Shown here in pieces: positions 10,746 to 30,804 of a DNA stretch of 53,461 bases; the first letter of the stretch is position 1; each line of letters opens with the position of its first letter. Origin of the DNA: a virus; the UHGV virus genome UHGV-0032033; one strand, written 5' to 3'. The translations under genes and the position numbers were made by a program. The notes under the pieces were generated by a model. That model did not search any database, was not told the DNA's origin, and saw only the letters and a program-made list of their open reading frames with translations.

Positions 10746-10952
10746 TTACACAATACGCATTATGTTTCTTGATTCACCGCGCAGCGCCTGCAACGCTTCG
10801 CGAACTGGAACAAAAGCTCTGTTAAATTTTACGTGTCTGTACTTGCGCATCAGTGGAGGTGTATAAACCATCGCGCCGCAAGAATTGCATGGGAAACGGA
10901 AATGTGATTCATCAATGAATGTTTCAACTGAATAAAATATTACCCGTCTCAT
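10746..10952 (-). CDS. hypothetical protein (68 aa)
   Basis: Small ORF in leftward early operon, overlapping start of downstream gene. Confidence 0.4.
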   Translation of the reverse strand: MRRVIFYSVETFIDESHFRFPCNSCGAMVYTPPLMRKYRHVKFNRAFVPVREALQALRGESRNIMRIV

Positions 10953-11542
10953 AATTCTAACCCCGTTTCGCTGTTAAGTTTTTCGATTTCAAATACTGGT
11001 TTATCCGGCAGCAGGCCGTTATTTTTCCGGTATTCGTTCAGGCGGCTATCAAAATCAAATGCAAGATCATTAGCGTGACCGAATCGCCCGGGCTTAAACA
11101 GTGAGTAAAAATTAAGGCCGTGTTTATTGGTGTCTATGCAAAGCGTTTCATCCAGTACCATTAAACGCAGCGTGCGCGACAGGTAATTCCACGGAATACC
11201 AGTTTCCGCGCTAATGTCACGCATACGCTTTTTAACGCTGTAGTCACTAAATAACGCCGCCACACGATCGCGCCGTTGCGCATACAAATATTTAATTCGA
11301 TACCCCAACAAGCGGCGGCGCGGTCCAAAATATGTATACACACGCTCAACAATACCAGTATCGATCAGGTGTTTAATTGTCTCAGACAAACATCCTGCTT
11401 CGTCATATTCCGCTGATAATCCTGTTTTCTGGCGTAGCTGGTGCATCGTTGCGATGCCGTCAATTTCAAGGATATTGATAACCTTTGTTTCAAGTTCAAT
11501 GCTCATTGTTTTTCGCCTCGTTTTAAGCACGAAAACAGCCAC
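10949..11542 (-). CDS. hypothetical protein, winged-helix-like N-terminus (start may be internal Met MSIELET)
   Basis: 197-aa ORF directly downstream of DnaB gene; N-terminal segment VINILEIDGIATMHQLRQKTGLS resembles wHTH. Confidence 0.45.
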   Translation of the reverse strand: MAVFVLKTRRKTMSIELETKVINILEIDGIATMHQLRQKTGLSAEYDEAGCLSETIKHLIDTGIVERVYTYFGPRRRLLGYRIKYLYAQRRDRVAALFSDYSVKKRMRDISAETGIPWNYLSRTLRLMVLDETLCIDTNKHGLNFYSLFKPGRFGHANDLAFDFDSRLNEYRKNNGLLPDKPVFEIEKLNSETGLEL

Positions 11543-13025: not shown

Positions 13026-14144
13026 TTACAAAATGGAATATTCAGGGTAATAAACAAAGCGCCCGATCTCCCCATAATCAGGACTGTAAATTATTACCGC
13101 AGCCAGACGCCGCGACCGCCAGCCGCCATTCGTTGAATAAGCGTCTTTGCCCGCTAACGTGCCGTGATGTTCTACGATCCCTAACGATGTTTCTACAACA
13201 GACTGGTGATGAAGATGGCCCGTATGAGCGTAAACCGCCGCCGACTTGCCGAAATCCTCCCGCCAGTCAGAGATGCAGGCAGCTAACAAATTTTCGGGTT
13301 TTTTGATAGTGTGACCGTGATGATAGGCAAGGAATGTTTTGCCGTACTGTGTGTGGTGGACGATAGCAGGGGACACGTCAACCGTCACGCGCGGTTCATC
13401 TTCGTAAAAAGCAGCCAGCGCCGCACGTAGCCAAATCATCCCTGATTGATCATGATTTCCGCTAAGCACCTGGATCTCGACATCCTTATGATTTAGCAAC
13501 ATCTTCCCGACAGCACGCCGGACCGACCGGATCGCCACGTAAACAAGTTTTGCGTAGCGTGAATCACAATCCAAAACGTGATTACTTGATGGCGTCACTG
13601 GTAACAGTCCGTCAGTGTGGAGCACATCCCCGCCTAACAGCAAAACAGCTTTTTCAGACATCGGTGCAGCGCCTACCGCGTAGTCGAAGAAATCATTTAG
13701 CACGCGCTCAGCGATCCCAGTGTCGTAGCTCTCGCCGCATTCTGCCTTGTGAGCAAGCGCCCCGATATGCAGATCAAATACCGGATAAAGGGCCAGGCTT
13801 TTTTGGAAATCAATTTCCGGCACTGGCACGGCCTCCGCGCGGGGTATTTCTTCCGTGAATGCATCACAAGCCGATTGCATTAGCCTTTCCATTTCATCGC
13901 GATCACGGGCTGTTTTAATCCAGCGCATAATCACATTGCCATCCTTATCGACGAGCAATGACTCACCATTGACGCCAAAACCCGGCGCGCGACGCGTGGA
14001 TATTAAACCGCGTTTCGCCAACCGTGCGCCCAGGCGTTCGACGTTGCGTTTTGCCATGCCATATTTTTCTGCTATTTGCTTGTAAGTTTTCCCCTTGTTG
14101 TACTCAGCGATCAGTTCCTCATCGCTGATCTTTCTTTGTGACAT
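13026..14144 (-). CDS. HTH domain fused to calcineurin-like metallophosphoesterase
   Basis: N-terminal HTH (TYKQIAEKYGMAKRNVERLGARLAKRGLI); C-terminal phosphoesterase motifs DLHIG, GGDVLHTD, LSGNHD, HTGHLHH; occupies helicase-loader position between initiator and DnaB. Confidence 0.6.
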   Translation of the reverse strand: MSQRKISDEELIAEYNKGKTYKQIAEKYGMAKRNVERLGARLAKRGLISTRRAPGFGVNGESLLVDKDGNVIMRWIKTARDRDEMERLMQSACDAFTEEIPRAEAVPVPEIDFQKSLALYPVFDLHIGALAHKAECGESYDTGIAERVLNDFFDYAVGAAPMSEKAVLLLGGDVLHTDGLLPVTPSSNHVLDCDSRYAKLVYVAIRSVRRAVGKMLLNHKDVEIQVLSGNHDQSGMIWLRAALAAFYEDEPRVTVDVSPAIVHHTQYGKTFLAYHHGHTIKKPENLLAACISDWREDFGKSAAVYAHTGHLHHQSVVETSLGIVEHHGTLAGKDAYSTNGGWRSRRLAAVIIYSPDYGEIGRFVYYPEYSIL

Positions 14145-14537
14145 AACGTTACTTCCTCATGTTTACAGAATGTATATTTATTTTCCGTAAAACGCGCTAC
14201 AACGCAAAATTCCACCGCGTAACCCACTTGTAAGGGTGCAGTGTCTTTTTTGCGCCAGAGGCGCTATCAGGTGGCTAATTTTTGATTTACAGACTGGTAG
14301 GTAGGTTATGGATTAACGAGAAGGTACAAGCCGCCGAACAAAGCGACGTTAACAGCGATTGCCGCAGCGATGGCAAGCCAGGGCGAAAACGTGTTTACCG
14401 TCCATTTTAAAATCCTCTCTGTAACGCTCTATAACGAGCTAATCGCAAAAAGGTAAGAAGTGTAGCACCATATGCGATTTAGCTCGCTGGTGAGGTTGTT
14501 TTGTGGGTAATTTTGGATTTTTGCGGATCGTGGTTGG

Positions 14538-15566
14538 TCAAAGAACGCCAGCGCGTGTATCACGTAGCGTTTTTGGTTTAAGCAGGAAATCAAGTGTCGC
14601 AGTAAAGCCATTGCCGAAGTAAAAATCTGAAGCCGTGTTTTTGAACGTTTCGAAGTAGGCGACAAAGCCGTTAATGCTTTTGTCTTTCAGGTAGTCAGTG
14701 AACGCATAGATCTTGCGTTCAAGATCCCGATCCAGTTCGGCAGGTGGTAACAGGCCGTCGAATGTCTGGTTAAATGCTGATACCACGACAGCAGAGTTAA
14801 CCGTAGCTGTAACTCTTCGCCATTGTTCAGCCTTTGCCAGATATTCATCAAAGCGGTTTACCCTTGCGATCTTTATCGGTTCAGGTTTAAACGACCACGT
14901 TTCCGCTATCCAGTCGATAACCATGATCAGATCTTCTTCAGTGTATGCACTGCGTGTTTTTGTCTCCTTCAGCAGCTTGATAAAGTATTTTTTCTCCTTA
15001 TGTTTGCTATTAAACTTGTTGTTATAGTGATCGAGTACGCGCGACGCTGCCAAATCAGCCGCCTGATCTTCTTCGCTGATAGGCCCGTCTTTTTCCAATA
15101 CACGGAGTGTATTGTTTTTAATGTTCTCTTTACTGGTTATATATGACTGATTAGGGTGTCTCTCTGACACCACCCCCGGTGTCACAGTGACACTACCCTG
15201 GTGTCTCTCTGACACTACCCCCGGTGTCACAGTGACACTACCCTGGTGTCTCTCTGACACTACCCCCGGTGTCACAGTGACACTACCCTGCAATGATGGC
15301 AAGACGATGACATAGAAATTACTTGTTTGCTCTTTTCCTCCTATTAGATAACGAGGTTGTTTAATTAATAACCCTTTCTCACAAAGAGCATCAATAGCCC
15401 GCATAGCTGTACTTTTACCTATTTCGCATTGCTTCGCTATGTGCTGGTAAGAAGGGTAACATTCGCCGTTATCGTTAGCGTTATCAGCCAACTTTAACAG
15501 CACCAGTTTGTGCATTGGGTTTCCGACCTCAGTATGGAATACCTCGACCATTAGCCGCATACTCAT
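14538..15566 (-). CDS. replication initiation protein (lambda O-like architecture) containing the iteron origin
   Basis: N-terminal HTH domain (KLVLLKLADNANDNGECYPSYQHIAKQCEIGKSTAMRAIDALCEKGLLIK); central linker encoded by 3 x 45-bp iterons (GSVTVTPGVVSERHQ x3). Confidence 0.65.
   Translation of the reverse strand: MSMRLMVEVFHTEVGNPMHKLVLLKLADNANDNGECYPSYQHIAKQCEIGKSTAMRAIDALCEKGLLIKQPRYLIGGKEQTSNFYVIVLPSLQGSVTVTPGVVSERHQGSVTVTPGVVSERHQGSVTVTPGVVSERHPNQSYITSKENIKNNTLRVLEKDGPISEEDQAADLAASRVLDHYNNKFNSKHKEKKYFIKLLKETKTRSAYTEEDLIMVIDWIAETWSFKPEPIKIARVNRFDEYLAKAEQWRRVTATVNSAVVVSAFNQTFDGLLPPAELDRDLERKIYAFTDYLKDKSINGFVAYFETFKNTASDFYFGNGFTATLDFLLKPKTLRDTRAGVL
15155..15289. repeat. origin iterons: three tandem 45-bp repeats, each with two GGTGTC-N4/5-GACAC palindromes
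   Basis: ggtgtctctctgacac(t/c)acccccggtgtcacagtgacactaccct repeated 3x within initiator ORF, adjacent AT-rich stretch at ~15121-15150. Confidence 0.8.
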
Positions 15567-15587
15567 AAATATTGGCCTCCTGATAAA

Positions 15588-15833
15588 CTAGAACATCAAC
15601 TGATAAACACAGAAGAAACCAGGTAGCTTGCTGATAAGACCATTTCTTTCAAGTTGATGCAGCGCAGAAACAGCATCGTGTAACGTAATTTCACACATTA
15701 CAGAGATCTCTTCCGGTGTGACTTCGCTTTTGCCGTTACATCCAGCCTTTGTTGCCAGCGCAATTAAGATGAGTTTTTGCGCCGGATCATTGTTATTCAG
15801 GCGAATATCAAAAGCCTTGCGCACGTAATACAT
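15588..15833 (-). CDS. small HTH protein, first gene of leftward early operon (Cro/cII position); paralogous to initiator N-domain
   Basis: RBS aggagaaaagaat-ATG; 81 aa from internal Met of track ORF; KLILIALATKAGCNGKSEVTPEEISVMCEITLHDAVSALHQLERNGLISK mirrors initiator N-terminus. Confidence 0.45.
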   Translation of the reverse strand: MYYVRKAFDIRLNNNDPAQKLILIALATKAGCNGKSEVTPEEISVMCEITLHDAVSALHQLERNGLISKLPGFFCVYQLMF

Positions 15834-15911
15834 ATTCTTTTCTCCTATGGTTAGAATGAACGCGCGGGCGGGCATCCCATTAGCATTAGATAGCAGTGAC
15901 TGACCGCTCAA

Positions 15912-16138
15912 CAGATCCCGCCGTTGCGTGATATTTGTTTTTCGCTTCGCAGCGACACCGGATTTTTAAAGAGCTTAAGGTAAGTGCCTTTTTGTGCCTT
16001 CCGTTATCTTTTTCCTTGCGTCTTTGCAAGTATGGCCTTACCTTGTCTGCAAGTTTACAAAATGGAATTTTAAGATCAAGGCTTAAAATACACGTTTTGT
16101 GACTTGCATCAAACTTTTTGAGGTTATAGGGTAGCGAC
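15912..16138. promoter_or_regulatory. divergent immunity-region control region (cI promoter / leftward early promoter, operators)
   Basis: Intergenic between divergent cI and early operon; palindromes CTTGCgtctttGCAAG (~16015-16030) and CTTGtctgCAAG (~16042-16053); 16-mer GTTTACAAAATGGAAT at ~16053; cI ATG lacks SD (leaderless-like). Confidence 0.5.
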
Positions 16139-16786
16139 ATGAAAACAAAATGGTATGACTTAGCAAAGCAGCTCATGCGGGCGCAGGGCATGAGTCAGGA
16201 TTCACTCGCAGATCTCATGGGGATAACTAAAGGCGGCCTGTCACACTGGCTGAATGGTCGCCGCGAGCCTAATCTTGAAGATATTGCGCGGATTATGCGG
16301 GCGCTTGGTCGTCGGCAGTTTACTGTTACACATGACGGCATGGTCATTGATGATTCTGTTTCTAATACACTTCAGGCCGCGCCGCCGCGTGATTTAGGTA
16401 GTTACCCGGTTATTGACTGGAAGGACACAGTAAACAATATGGATGACACAAGGCGATCAGCATTACCACACGTTACGACTAGCGTTATTTGTTCAGATGA
16501 TAGTTACTGGCTGGTTGCCAAAGGTGAATCAATGAACGCGCCGCAGGGGTTGAGCATCCCTGCTGGGACGATGATACTTGTAGACCCGCACGCGCCAGCT
16601 ATTGACGGCAAACTGGTTATAGCCCAGCTTGAGGAAGGGCAGATACCGACGTTTAAACAGTTGATTATTGATGGAGGTCAAAGGCTTTTACGTTCGCTCA
16701 ATCCGCTGTATCCGCCAATCCCTATGAATCCAGAATCAAAAATTATAGGCGTGGTGGTTGATGCGAAGATCGTAAACCTGCCATAA
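16139..16786 (+). CDS. cI: cI-like repressor (XRE HTH + S24/LexA-type autopeptidase)
   Basis: N-terminal HTH (SQDSLADLMGITKGGLSHWLNGRREP), C-terminal S24 motifs (VAKGESMNAP, IPTFKQLIIDGG); divergent from early operon. Confidence 0.85.
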   Translation: MKTKWYDLAKQLMRAQGMSQDSLADLMGITKGGLSHWLNGRREPNLEDIARIMRALGRRQFTVTHDGMVIDDSVSNTLQAAPPRDLGSYPVIDWKDTVNNMDDTRRSALPHVTTSVICSDDSYWLVAKGESMNAPQGLSIPAGTMILVDPHAPAIDGKLVIAQLEEGQIPTFKQLIIDGGQRLLRSLNPLYPPIPMNPESKIIGVVVDAKIVNLP

Positions 16787-16789
16787 ACA

Positions 16790-16818
16790 TTAGCCGCCGG
16801 ATGGCGGCTTTTCTTTGC
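16790..16818 (+). terminator. rho-independent terminator after cI
   Basis: hairpin agccgcc-ggat-ggcggct followed by TTTCTTTG. Confidence 0.7.
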
Positions 16819-16909
16819 CCGGAAAACACCAAAACGTAAACAGAAAACGTTATTTATTGTTTAAATATCAATAGCATATAAAATATTTTAAAAAGGTATA
16901 CAAAATGGA

Positions 16910-16938
16910 TTGACTCGATGTTTTACGGGGCGTATATT
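16910..16938 (+). promoter_or_regulatory. near-consensus sigma70 promoter for rightward early operon (pL-equivalent)
   Basis: TTGACT - 17 nt - TATATT; preceded by motif AGGTATACAAAATGG; followed by ~340-nt leader before first ORF. Confidence 0.6.
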
Positions 16939-17285
16939 GCGAGTCAAAGGAAGGGCGCAGGTAACAAAAGCAACTTCCTGGCACTTTAAAAATCAGGCTT
17001 AACACCTTGTCAACCGTGGAGTAACTCCCCGATGAGGGACTGAAAGCGGCACTGATAACAAGGCGCATGGGGTGTTTAAAGCGTTACATCCCCCACGAAA
17101 CCGCACGCAAGGCGACGAGTCAGCTTGCTTGGAGTGAGCAAGGTCACGCCGGGAACGGCGATGATTGCGGGATTAGTTGAAAGATGTTAGGCCGCTCATT
17201 AACAATCTGGTCAGCCGCTGGAAGTGCGGCAATTAACGAAGATGATTTTTATTAAGTTTCATCAAGGATATACGGAGATCAGATT

Positions 17286-17576
17286 ATGAGCGTTACAATT
17301 ATGTATGGCAAATGTGACAGTAAACTGAATGCCAGGGAACGCAGAAGGATAAAAAGAGAAAACGAAAGAAAATCATCACCTGCAATCAATAAAACAGACA
17401 ATGTGGATAAAGCTATTCGATTTGCAAACGAGGAAAGATGCAAACCAAATAGCATTAAAGAACGTCGCAAAGGATCAGTAAAATGGTATACGGAAAATGA
17501 AAGCGGCAACTACTACCACGCAACGCAACCACGCCATTTAGGGGAAAAACCCCTGGATAAAGTCCGCTACCATTAA
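17286..17576 (+). CDS. hypothetical basic protein (96 aa)
   Basis: RBS ggag; Arg/Lys-rich (ARERRRIKRENERK); first ORF of rightward early operon. Confidence 0.45.
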   Translation: MSVTIMYGKCDSKLNARERRRIKRENERKSSPAINKTDNVDKAIRFANEERCKPNSIKERRKGSVKWYTENESGNYYHATQPRHLGEKPLDKVRYH

Positions 17577-30707: not shown

Positions 30708-30804
30708 TGTGATCTGCATCACGAGGTATACAAAATGGCATTGTTTTGGCAGTGCCATTTTGTTATAAAGAGGCTGAAGAGAGAACGATACGGAGGGTAG
30801 AAAA

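Follow-up and report, generated by a model that had tools for sequence, protein, structure and literature searches.

The UHGV virus genome UHGV-0032033 was analyzed as one stretch of 53,461 nucleotides (hereafter the window), in which a small gene at 15588–15833 on the minus strand encodes an 81-residue protein (MYYVRKAF...QLMF) predicted to be a stand-alone winged helix. The region is 88–97% identical to the mEp021-like coliphages mEp013, mEp010, mEp044, mEp554, mEp515 and MagusPhagus. These phages make up the mEpimmI group, whose members are Nus-dependent, non-lambdoid temperate phages that have one cI immunity in common, and in the human gut they are reported to be as common as lambdoid coliphages; their Rep021 confers immunity, as found by experiment (PMC11893012). 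The cI-type repressor gene of the window (16139–16786, plus strand; Pfam HTH_3 and Peptidase_S24) is divergent from the small gene, and its product, which defines the single mEpimmI immunity group, is 91–100% identical across 44 IMG/VR loci. Leftward from cI come a 305-bp intergenic region containing a nutL-like element, the 81-residue open reading frame (ORF), the replication initiator gene, about 390 bp lacking a long ORF, a gene for a 372-residue exonuclease-like protein and the DnaB gene. To the right of cI, past a terminator and a promoter, lies an N-like antiterminator gene (17286–17576; PHROG 'anti-termination protein N-like'). As in lambda, cI thus sits between two early operons, the divergent one of which carries the replication genes, and this places the small gene in the cro position. 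The first-pass annotation had called it the first leftward early gene, and we agree, since no conserved ORF lies between 15834 and 16138, that is, between the gene and the cI start at 16139; the early operon that diverges from cI opens with it, although it lies past the nut site. Comparative sequence analysis indicates that this is a real, selectively maintained mEpimmI gene that belongs to the replication module and not to the immunity switch.

Translation of the small gene was assigned to the ATG at 15833–15831 (stop codon TAG, 15590–15588), which is preceded at a distance of 8 nt by an AGGAG Shine-Dalgarno sequence (15842–15846). Longer forms, a 107-residue TTG extension and a 95-residue form starting at the in-frame ATG at 15875, were rejected as not conserved, and many relatives' genes begin directly at the MYYV or MSM codon. 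The protein is the orthologue of mEp021 gp14 (AXN54133.1), and its closest orthologues, which we call allele A, are 86–95% identical to it (mEp021, 86%; mEp013, 88%). By BLASTP residues 16–74 of the small protein aligned without gaps to residues 16–74 of the adjacent initiator (20 of 59 identical, 34%; 53% positives; E 3e-8), which is the alignment that the first-pass annotation had quoted in likening the protein to the N-terminal helix-turn-helix (HTH) domain of the initiator. The Smith-Waterman score for the pair was 84 versus 23.8 ± 4.2 for 2000 shuffles, none of which reached 84 (z = 14), whereas the other HTH proteins encoded in the window (cI, a 197-residue MarR-like protein and the 372-residue exonuclease-like protein) scored at chance level against the small protein (z 1.1–1.8). 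All three PHROG matches of the small protein were replication initiators, these being phrog_4617 (8.8e-9, residues 1–69), phrog_270 and phrog_8540. An AlphaFold2 (AF2) model built from a shallow alignment of five sequences (predicted local distance difference test, pLDDT, 71) gave a putative winged helix composed of three helices and a β-hairpin wing (H17–33, H40–46, H51–63, E67–70, E76–79). Foldseek neighbors of the model in the PDB were generic (MarR, LexA and TrmB winged helices), and the best viral structural neighbors included replication protein O, 'lambda GpO N-terminal' proteins and Phg_2220_C proteins (TMq 0.75–0.78). Formal alignment and structure prediction, the two computational checks that the first-pass annotation had proposed, thus gave significant similarity and a winged helix.

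Assignment of the small protein to a family required its orthologues. The window protein had no match to Pfam HTH_36 (PF13730, gathering threshold 25 bits) at E ≤ 1, and its top match was to MarR_2 (15.8 bits). Two orthologues exceed the HTH_36 threshold, the B1 allele described below (32.5 bits) and a hybrid allele, P0030 (28.9 bits). As it shares 38% identity with B1 (E 2e-19), the window protein belongs to HTH_36 by transitive homology only. Like the iteron-specifying N-terminal domains of the O-like/HTH_36 initiators, the small protein has the homologous winged helix across the full domain, but its recognition helix residues depart from the HTH_36 consensus (TAMR). We rejected membership in the MarR family, for which the cut-off is 27 bits and members are about 140 residues in length, because the small protein scores only 15.8 bits, has 81 residues and lacks dimerization helices on the N- and C-terminal sides of the winged helix. 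The MarR label that NCBI and JGI give to its orthologues (mEp021 gp14 is a 'putative helix-turn-helix domain-containing protein, similar to MarR') reflects generic winged-helix similarity only. Other orthologues are annotated as 'hypothetical protein' and that of MagusPhagus, in a pharokka-style label, as 'replication initiation protein'. The last label is also incorrect, because the 81-residue protein stops where the wing of the initiator ends and has no C-terminal domain, no repeats or palindromes lie inside the gene (no perfect inverted repeat with 7-nt arms was found in any allele) and the iterons are in the next gene. What is missing relative to the initiator is the iteron-encoded linker and the entire C-terminal half; what is retained is the homologous N-terminal winged helix. 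The family is very narrow. A HMMER search of 1.84 billion representative proteins gave eight matches at E < 1e-3, and a profile word search returned only proteins of E. coli mEpimmI phages.

The adjacent initiator gene (14538–15566, minus strand) starts 21 nt past the small-gene stop codon and encodes a 342-residue protein consisting of an HTH_36 N-terminal winged helix (4.5e-15, residues 16–67), an iteron-encoded linker and a C-terminal half having a weak, sub-threshold match to Phg_2220_C (DnaD-like; 0.0057, 17.1 bits versus a 27-bit cut-off). Its PHROG assignment is 'replication initiation O-like' (5.7e-35), and the mEp021 and mEp013 orthologues are annotated as replication protein or protein O. 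Within the gene are the origin iterons (15155–15290), three 45-bp tandem units with six palindromic 16-mers (GGTGTC-N4-GACAC) that encode the repeated peptide GSVTVTPGVVSERHQ. The iteron motif is confined to this segment, with 12 matches versus 0.21 expected for the entire window. Iterons of this kind vary among relatives, GTGTCA...TGACAC being found in the window and in locus L028 and GTGGCA...GCAAC in L030, and only small changes in the initiator recognition helix go with this difference (EIGKSTAMRAIDAL versus EINKSTAMRAIEAL). These variants are a possible natural series for the study of iteron specificity.

We compared the window with 48 related mEpimmI loci, 44 of them fetched from IMG/VR by way of cI and four from GenBank phages; the IMG/VR loci are not independent samples, as many are near-identical. 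The initiators fall into two types. Type A (the window and mEp021) has the HTH_36 N-terminus and the palindromic GGTGTC-N4-GACAC iterons, whereas in type B (mEp515 and MagusPhagus; L003:1640-2695 and L004:1629-2681) the N-terminus is Lin1244_N (PF14297) and the iterons are four 11-bp copies of TCATGACCC. Both types have the same C-terminal half, and the initiators are modular. The small gene likewise has two major alleles, A (81 residues, MYYV...; mEp021, mEp013, mEp010, mEp044 and mEp554) and B (84–85 residues, MSM...; mEp515 and MagusPhagus), which are 38% identical. B alleles in general are 34–38% identical to the window protein and precede the other initiator type, with the differences among subtypes B1, B2 and B3 lying in helix 2, the recognition helix and the wing. 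Allele A was found with an HTH_36 initiator in six of six cases and allele B with a Lin1244_N initiator in all 39. The first-pass annotation had proposed a detached paralog. The protein is indeed a detached homologue, but it is not strictly a paralogue of the adjacent initiator, as in most relatives that initiator has an unrelated N-terminus, Lin1244_N.

The boundaries of the exchanged segment were sharp. From cI across the operators and nutL to the small-gene Shine-Dalgarno sequence, the window matches MagusPhagus at 100% identity. Identity is only 30–60% over the next approximately 1.07 kb, and from mid-initiator onward it is back at 100%. The identity profile of the window against L004 falls exactly at the Shine-Dalgarno sequence, which is the left edge of the exchangeable cassette. 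This profile argues that the small gene travels with the initiator N-terminus and iterons as one cassette. Linkage and co-adaptation are inseparable in such comparisons. Allele co-variation with the non-coding region downstream of the initiator was looked for and none was found.

The small gene is under purifying selection. The ratio of nonsynonymous to synonymous polymorphism (pN/pS) was 0.10 for allele A, 0.27 for B1 and 0.15 for B3, compared with 0.09–0.12 for the initiators and 0.21 for cI, and the reading frame was intact in all 45 genomes that carry the gene. Divergence between B1 and B2 is limited to a patch of about 170 bp encoding helix 2, helix 3 and the wing, with flanks that are 90–100% identical. 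Within A, B1 and B2 the patch is strongly conserved (pN/pS 0.08–0.19), and between alleles its synonymous sites are saturated (pS 0.64–0.73) with a ratio of nonsynonymous to synonymous substitution (dN/dS) of 0.12–0.26. Given these values positive selection on the recognition helix was rejected, and saturated dS together with low dN/dS indicates old alleles moved by recombination rather than rapid adaptive change. The gene is dispensable in nature. It is precisely deleted in three of the 48 genomes, two having the A background (L028 and L030) and one the B background (L045), and all three are of full phage length (53–56 kb). The L028 and L030 deletion junction lies between two AGGAG Shine-Dalgarno sequences (...ACCATAGGAG|GCCAAT..ATGAGTATG), and that of L045 lies at two ATGA start sites.

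Homology to the initiator, selection, cassette linkage, the natural deletions and, as described below, independence from cI and recurrence of the arrangement in unrelated lineages together favor a replication accessory. The reading we tentatively prefer, with slightly less than even confidence, is that the small protein, which has the DNA-binding domain alone, is a non-essential accessory to replication and modulates either initiator and origin function or expression of the replication operon. The gene, which lies 3–21 nt from the initiator start codon, would be transcribed past nutL as the first cistron of the initiator/exonuclease-like/DnaB operon, and its product would probably be made in step with the initiator. 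The protein could then bind DNA, or the initiator or replisome-organizer complex, without the power to recruit helicase, and the outcome would be tuning of the amount or timing of origin firing or of replication operon expression. DNA binding by the protein is putative, and its effect could be positive or negative. As the recognition helix is unmatched to the cognate iterons, the target is probably not simply those iterons; candidate alternatives would be a separate DNA target or a protein partner that docks on the conserved helix 1 (QKLVL.ALA.KA).

Several observations weigh against this interpretation. The recognition helix of the small protein (TLHDAVSAL) differs from that of the initiator (KSTAMRAI), and neither the promoter nor the gene itself gave a candidate site that was iteron-like or palindromic. 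B1, B2 and B3 occur with virtually the same initiator N-terminus and with one set of TCATGACCC iterons, and the hybrid P0030, which has a B-like N-terminal half, a B1-like helix and an A-like C-terminal end, precedes an A-type initiator. These last two findings argue against competition for cognate iterons, and the linkage of alleles to initiator types probably reflects adjacency rather than matched specificity. Confidence in the AF2 model is moderate. Tandem pairs of this kind are rare: of 80 other prophage loci with HTH_36 initiators, drawn from diverse Gammaproteobacteria, none had one. No other Cro candidate was found in the window, whether within the intergenic region or outside it, which leaves the Cro role unfilled. 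Finally, the gene is not discussed in the genome paper of the group nor mentioned in its supplements (PMC11893012). Of the two roles raised in the first-pass annotation, regulation of origin firing remains the best class of idea, but simple competition for cognate iterons is disfavored by the B1–B3 sharing, the hybrid and the helix difference.

Experimentally, the nearest analogy seems to be with truncated Rep variants, for example pIGRK RepR', a plasmid protein that regulates replication negatively and serves as co-repressor of repR (PMC6854812). Like the small protein, RepR' is a shorter relative of an initiator in which the DNA-binding/dimerization domain is kept and the effector part lost. 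However, RepR' is an in-frame product of the same gene and has an identical domain, whereas the small protein is encoded by a separate gene, is 34% identical to the initiator and has its own recognition helix. Short π forms of R6K, IS1 InsA and the Tn5 inhibitor are other shorter relatives of initiators or transposases that modulate the full-length protein. In gene order the locus also resembles CopG-RepB of pMV158, where a small repressor gene is co-transcribed upstream of rep. In plasmid pRN1 a small DNA-binding repressor (ORF56) is the first replication-operon cistron, directly before the initiator gene (ORF904) (PMC4234260). ORF56 and CopG are ribbon-helix-helix proteins unrelated to their initiators and bind their own promoters, unlike the small protein, for which no site of that kind was identified at the promoter or in the gene.

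Parallels to the arrangement came from two weak matches in the family searches, each in another lineage. In a Psychromonas sp. PT13 prophage (L053 and L054) the gene for a 92-residue stand-alone HTH_36 protein, P0010, overlaps by 4 nt the gene of a 284-residue HTH_36 initiator with iterons, the order being cI, a P22_Cro-type Cro, a CP76-type CII, a 110-residue ORF, P0010, the initiator and a lambda-P-like gene. P0010 is 42% identical to the N-terminus of its own neighbor (E 1e-22) and is a singleton lacking close relatives among 5.8 billion proteins. In a metagenomic contig (L055) the gene for a 90-residue protein, P0012, likewise overlaps an HTH_36 initiator gene. Both resemble the mEpimmI pair in being a tandem, translationally coupled small gene and initiator, but they are independent, lineage-specific events and the Psychromonas gene is the fourth in its operon. 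Together with the mEpimmI case they indicate that a stand-alone domain before the initiator arose at least three times, once beside a true Cro. In a metagenome-assembled genome of the symbiont Candidatus Phlomobacter fragariae (L093, L114 and L122) several HTH_36 initiator genes are shortened to 54–84 residues; these short ORFs are probably pseudogene fragments rather than stand-alone genes and call for caution in censuses of 'domain-only' proteins.

The most serious competing explanation, although an unlikely one, is that the small protein is a Cro analogue that binds the cI operators (16025–16108), shuts off the cI maintenance promoter, damps the early promoters and commits the phage to lysis. 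The gene occupies the position of lambda cro, being first in the operon divergent from cI with the replication genes next, and its product is, as is lambda Cro, a small protein with a DNA-binding fold according to the model. No canonical Cro was recognized, as the first-pass annotation had stated: none of the intergenic ORFs matched Cro, HTH_3 or P22_Cro, PHROG scans of ten further small ORFs gave no Cro, and five Cro sequences used as tblastn queries on the entire window had no match below E 0.63. A separate Cro gene, one of two findings that would by the first-pass annotation have refuted its reading, was thus not recognized by Pfam, PHROG or tblastn in the window, and the other, a lack of similarity to the initiator, is contradicted by the alignment. 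A 101-residue ORF (15886–16191) was considered as a Cro hidden in the 305-bp intergenic region and rejected, because it starts inside cI, has no Pfam match and loses its frame in relatives through indels. The published description of the mEpimmI group names no Cro (PMC11893012). The analogue explanation keeps some weight because nothing else fills the role.

Several results argue against a Cro analogue. The small protein had no Pfam match to the known Cro families (HTH_3, lambda Cro, P22_Cro and YdaS) and belongs to another sequence family, and unlike lambda cro its gene lies downstream of the nut site. In lambdoid phages cro varies together with cI and the operators, the three forming one immunity cassette. 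The small gene does not co-vary with cI and the operators: one identical 70-residue cI HTH domain was found among the 48 loci with allele A (six loci), B1 (ten), B2 (five), B3 (three) and no small gene (two), and one identical 170-nt operator region with A (one), B1 (seven) and B2 (two). Given that these alleles are 30–46% identical overall and differ strongly in the recognition helix and wing, a Cro sharing the operators of cI is unlikely. The mosaic boundary between nutL and the small gene puts the gene outside the immunity cassette, the gene is missing from three of 48 otherwise intact genomes, and in the Psychromonas prophage the homologous stand-alone gene stands beside a bona fide Cro. 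Moreover, architectures lacking Cro at this position are not unusual, as Eru-type Stx phages also have no cro there (PMC8951638). The proposal of the first-pass annotation that the protein acts in the lysis-lysogeny switch at the cI operators thus found no support in these comparisons. The Eru-type Stx phages resemble the window in being temperate E. coli phages that have an S24-type cI and an HTH_36 protein rather than cro as the first or second divergent gene. Their HTH_36 proteins, encoded directly upstream of cI, are treated as putative replication proteins and characterized only by the HTH_36 motif, with two of them also having a plasmid replication/relaxation motif (PF13814); a separate domain-only gene of the kind in the window is not described (PMC8951638).

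It is doubtful, and we would give it little credence, that the small protein is an independent specificity factor, either a decoy for the origins or initiators of competing related phages in co-infection or a factor that meets a variable host or defense component. Such a function would explain discrete, ancient helix and wing alleles in otherwise near-identical genomes, and the confinement of divergence to the 170-bp patch, conservation of the patch within each allele and the failure of the alleles to match either cognate iterons or cI are all consistent with it. So is the finding that B-type phages, although their initiator has a Lin1244_N N-terminus, still carry an HTH_36 domain resembling that of A-type initiators. 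Against it, exclusion from a lysogen is already given by cI, there being one immunity group for all, the gene lies within the repressed early operon, allele shuffling may be ordinary mosaic recombination, and the 7.6-kb loci yielded no DNA motif specific to any one allele. A broader form of this idea, which is highly speculative, is that stand-alone initiator DNA-binding domains are a recurrent, so far undescribed class of phage factors that interfere with or tune replication, with the mEpimmI alleles being specificity types directed against the origins or initiators of co-infecting phages or a variable host factor. If this were true, the small gene would be a second, replication-level 'immunity' determinant shuffled independently of cI.

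Least able to account for the data, and very improbable in our view, is that the gene is an evolutionary remnant, the leftover 5' domain of an older HTH_36 initiator, severed by replacement of the remainder of that gene and kept mainly as a leader cistron whose translation and 3' end aid initiator expression: the alignment of B alleles to the A-type initiator runs from Met1 (MSM...) to the LP right before the iterons (for B1, 32% over 73 residues, E 6e-14), the initiator Shine-Dalgarno sequence lies in or just past the last codons of the small gene with a gap of 3 or 21 nt, and after the precise deletions the initiator uses the ribosome-binding site of the small gene, but purifying selection acts on the amino acids, including the helix and wing half (pN/pS about 0.1), the frame is intact in every carrier, distinct old alleles are maintained, the arrangement arose independently elsewhere, and a mere leader would not conserve a folded domain. 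We also rejected the small protein as the true origin-binding subunit of Lin1244_N-type initiators, because L045 has such an initiator without a small gene and B1–B3 share one iteron set.

That a gene in the Cro position should be a detached initiator DNA-binding domain that segregates with the replication cassette sharpens the question of how mEpimmI phages commit to lysis. The replication accessory interpretation is easily testable, because natural knockouts and at least four natural alleles exist, and the gene may add a layer of control or competition at the origin. More generally, when initiator N-termini and iterons are exchanged as modules, genes for a single domain can be left behind or created, and selection then retains them. 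If the protein is merely an accessory regulator, the value of the analysis is a correction of annotation: it is not a MarR protein, not an initiator and probably not a Cro.

Several regulatory sequences were assigned between cI and the small gene. A predicted leftward early promoter (16052–16079, minus strand) read by eye consists of a TTGATC –35 element (16079–16074), a 16-nt spacer and a TAAACT –10 element (16057–16052), and is kept as TTGA[TC]C-16-TAAACT in relatives; a promoter scan reported none at this location, where the site scores 8/12 versus a threshold of 9/12. Downstream is the nutL-like element (15942–15974, minus strand), composed of a boxA-like sequence (GCTCTTTAAAAA, 15974–15963), a hairpin (TCGCT-GCGA-AGCGA, 15955–15942) and an A-run. 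The hairpin, a 5-bp stem with a GCGA tetraloop, appears in the RNA fold, and the element is kept in all relatives examined, both A- and B-type. The published work places nutL upstream of the repressor gene gp15 (PMC11893012), and our assignment to exact bases is by motif only. The small gene and initiator thus appear from their sequence context to sit downstream of an N-type antitermination site. Close to the early promoter, CCGGTGTC (15954–15961) resembles the start of the iteron; this was rejected as a chance resemblance, because GGTGTCGCTGCGAAGCGAAAAAC is kept as part of nutL in phages with A- and B-type iterons alike and no iteron palindrome lies outside the origin. A terminator scan gave no match for an intrinsic terminator between nutL and the small gene, where the only long hairpin (GGCGGG...CCCGCC) lacks a U-tract and has a fold z score of –1.2, and an Rfam search of 15500–17400 gave no relevant match.

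Candidate operators for cI were recognized by repeat search and sequence at 16025–16108, where TGCAAGT occurs at 16025–16031 and 16048–16054 and ACTTGCA at 16102–16108. The TGCAAGT/ACTTGCA motifs are part of a 61-bp imperfect palindrome (arms 16048–16074 and 16082–16108) that spans the divergent promoters, and no iteron-like sites were found in this region. A weak rightward promoter-like sequence (TTGCAT-15-TATAGG) ends about 8 nt before the cI ATG, which suggests that the cI mRNA may be leaderless or nearly so, as is that from lambda PRM. A 12-mer, ACAAAATGGAAT, was found with at most one mismatch in the leftward –10 region (16057–16068), just inside the cI coding start (16145–16156), at the –35 element (16900–16911) of the rightward early promoter (16910–16938) and at the boundary of the exonuclease-like and DnaB genes (13028–13039), with a fifth match at 30730–30741, away from the other four. 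When two mismatches were allowed there were 17 matches versus 9.2 expected, a number reached in one of 100 shuffles. The 12-mer may be an operator half-site.

Elsewhere in the leftward operon, the 372-residue protein (13026–14144, minus strand) matched PHROG 704, 'DNA repair exonuclease' (8e-139), and gave sub-threshold N-terminal HTH matches (Pfam E 0.01–0.12). The 197-residue protein (10949–11542, minus strand) had weak PHROG matches to 'MarR family' and 'Ren-like exclusion'. In mEp021 the same stretch of the replication operon holds extra genes, which encode a zinc-ribbon protein and an HNH endonuclease. Downstream of the initiator gene at about 14306–14405 (minus strand) is an ORF for a 33-residue hydrophobic peptide (MDSKHVFA.AFAIAAAIAVNV.LFGGL.L.VNP) that is kept in L004, L013 and L029 and is annotated in mEp013. 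The window copy is frameshifted by a 2-nt deletion after about 10 codons, the remainder being readable in the +1 frame, and this could be a true inactivation or a sequencing error. In L028, one of the genomes lacking the upstream small gene, this peptide ORF is replaced by a different small winged-helix gene directly after the initiator (minus strand relative to cI). Its ORF encodes 77 residues, of which the 73 scanned matched MarR_2 at 30.2 bits, and it has no detectable homology (hhalign probability 3%) to the gp14 family, which occupies the locus between nutL and the initiator in mEp021 and its orthologues. This downstream gene may be a non-orthologous replacement.

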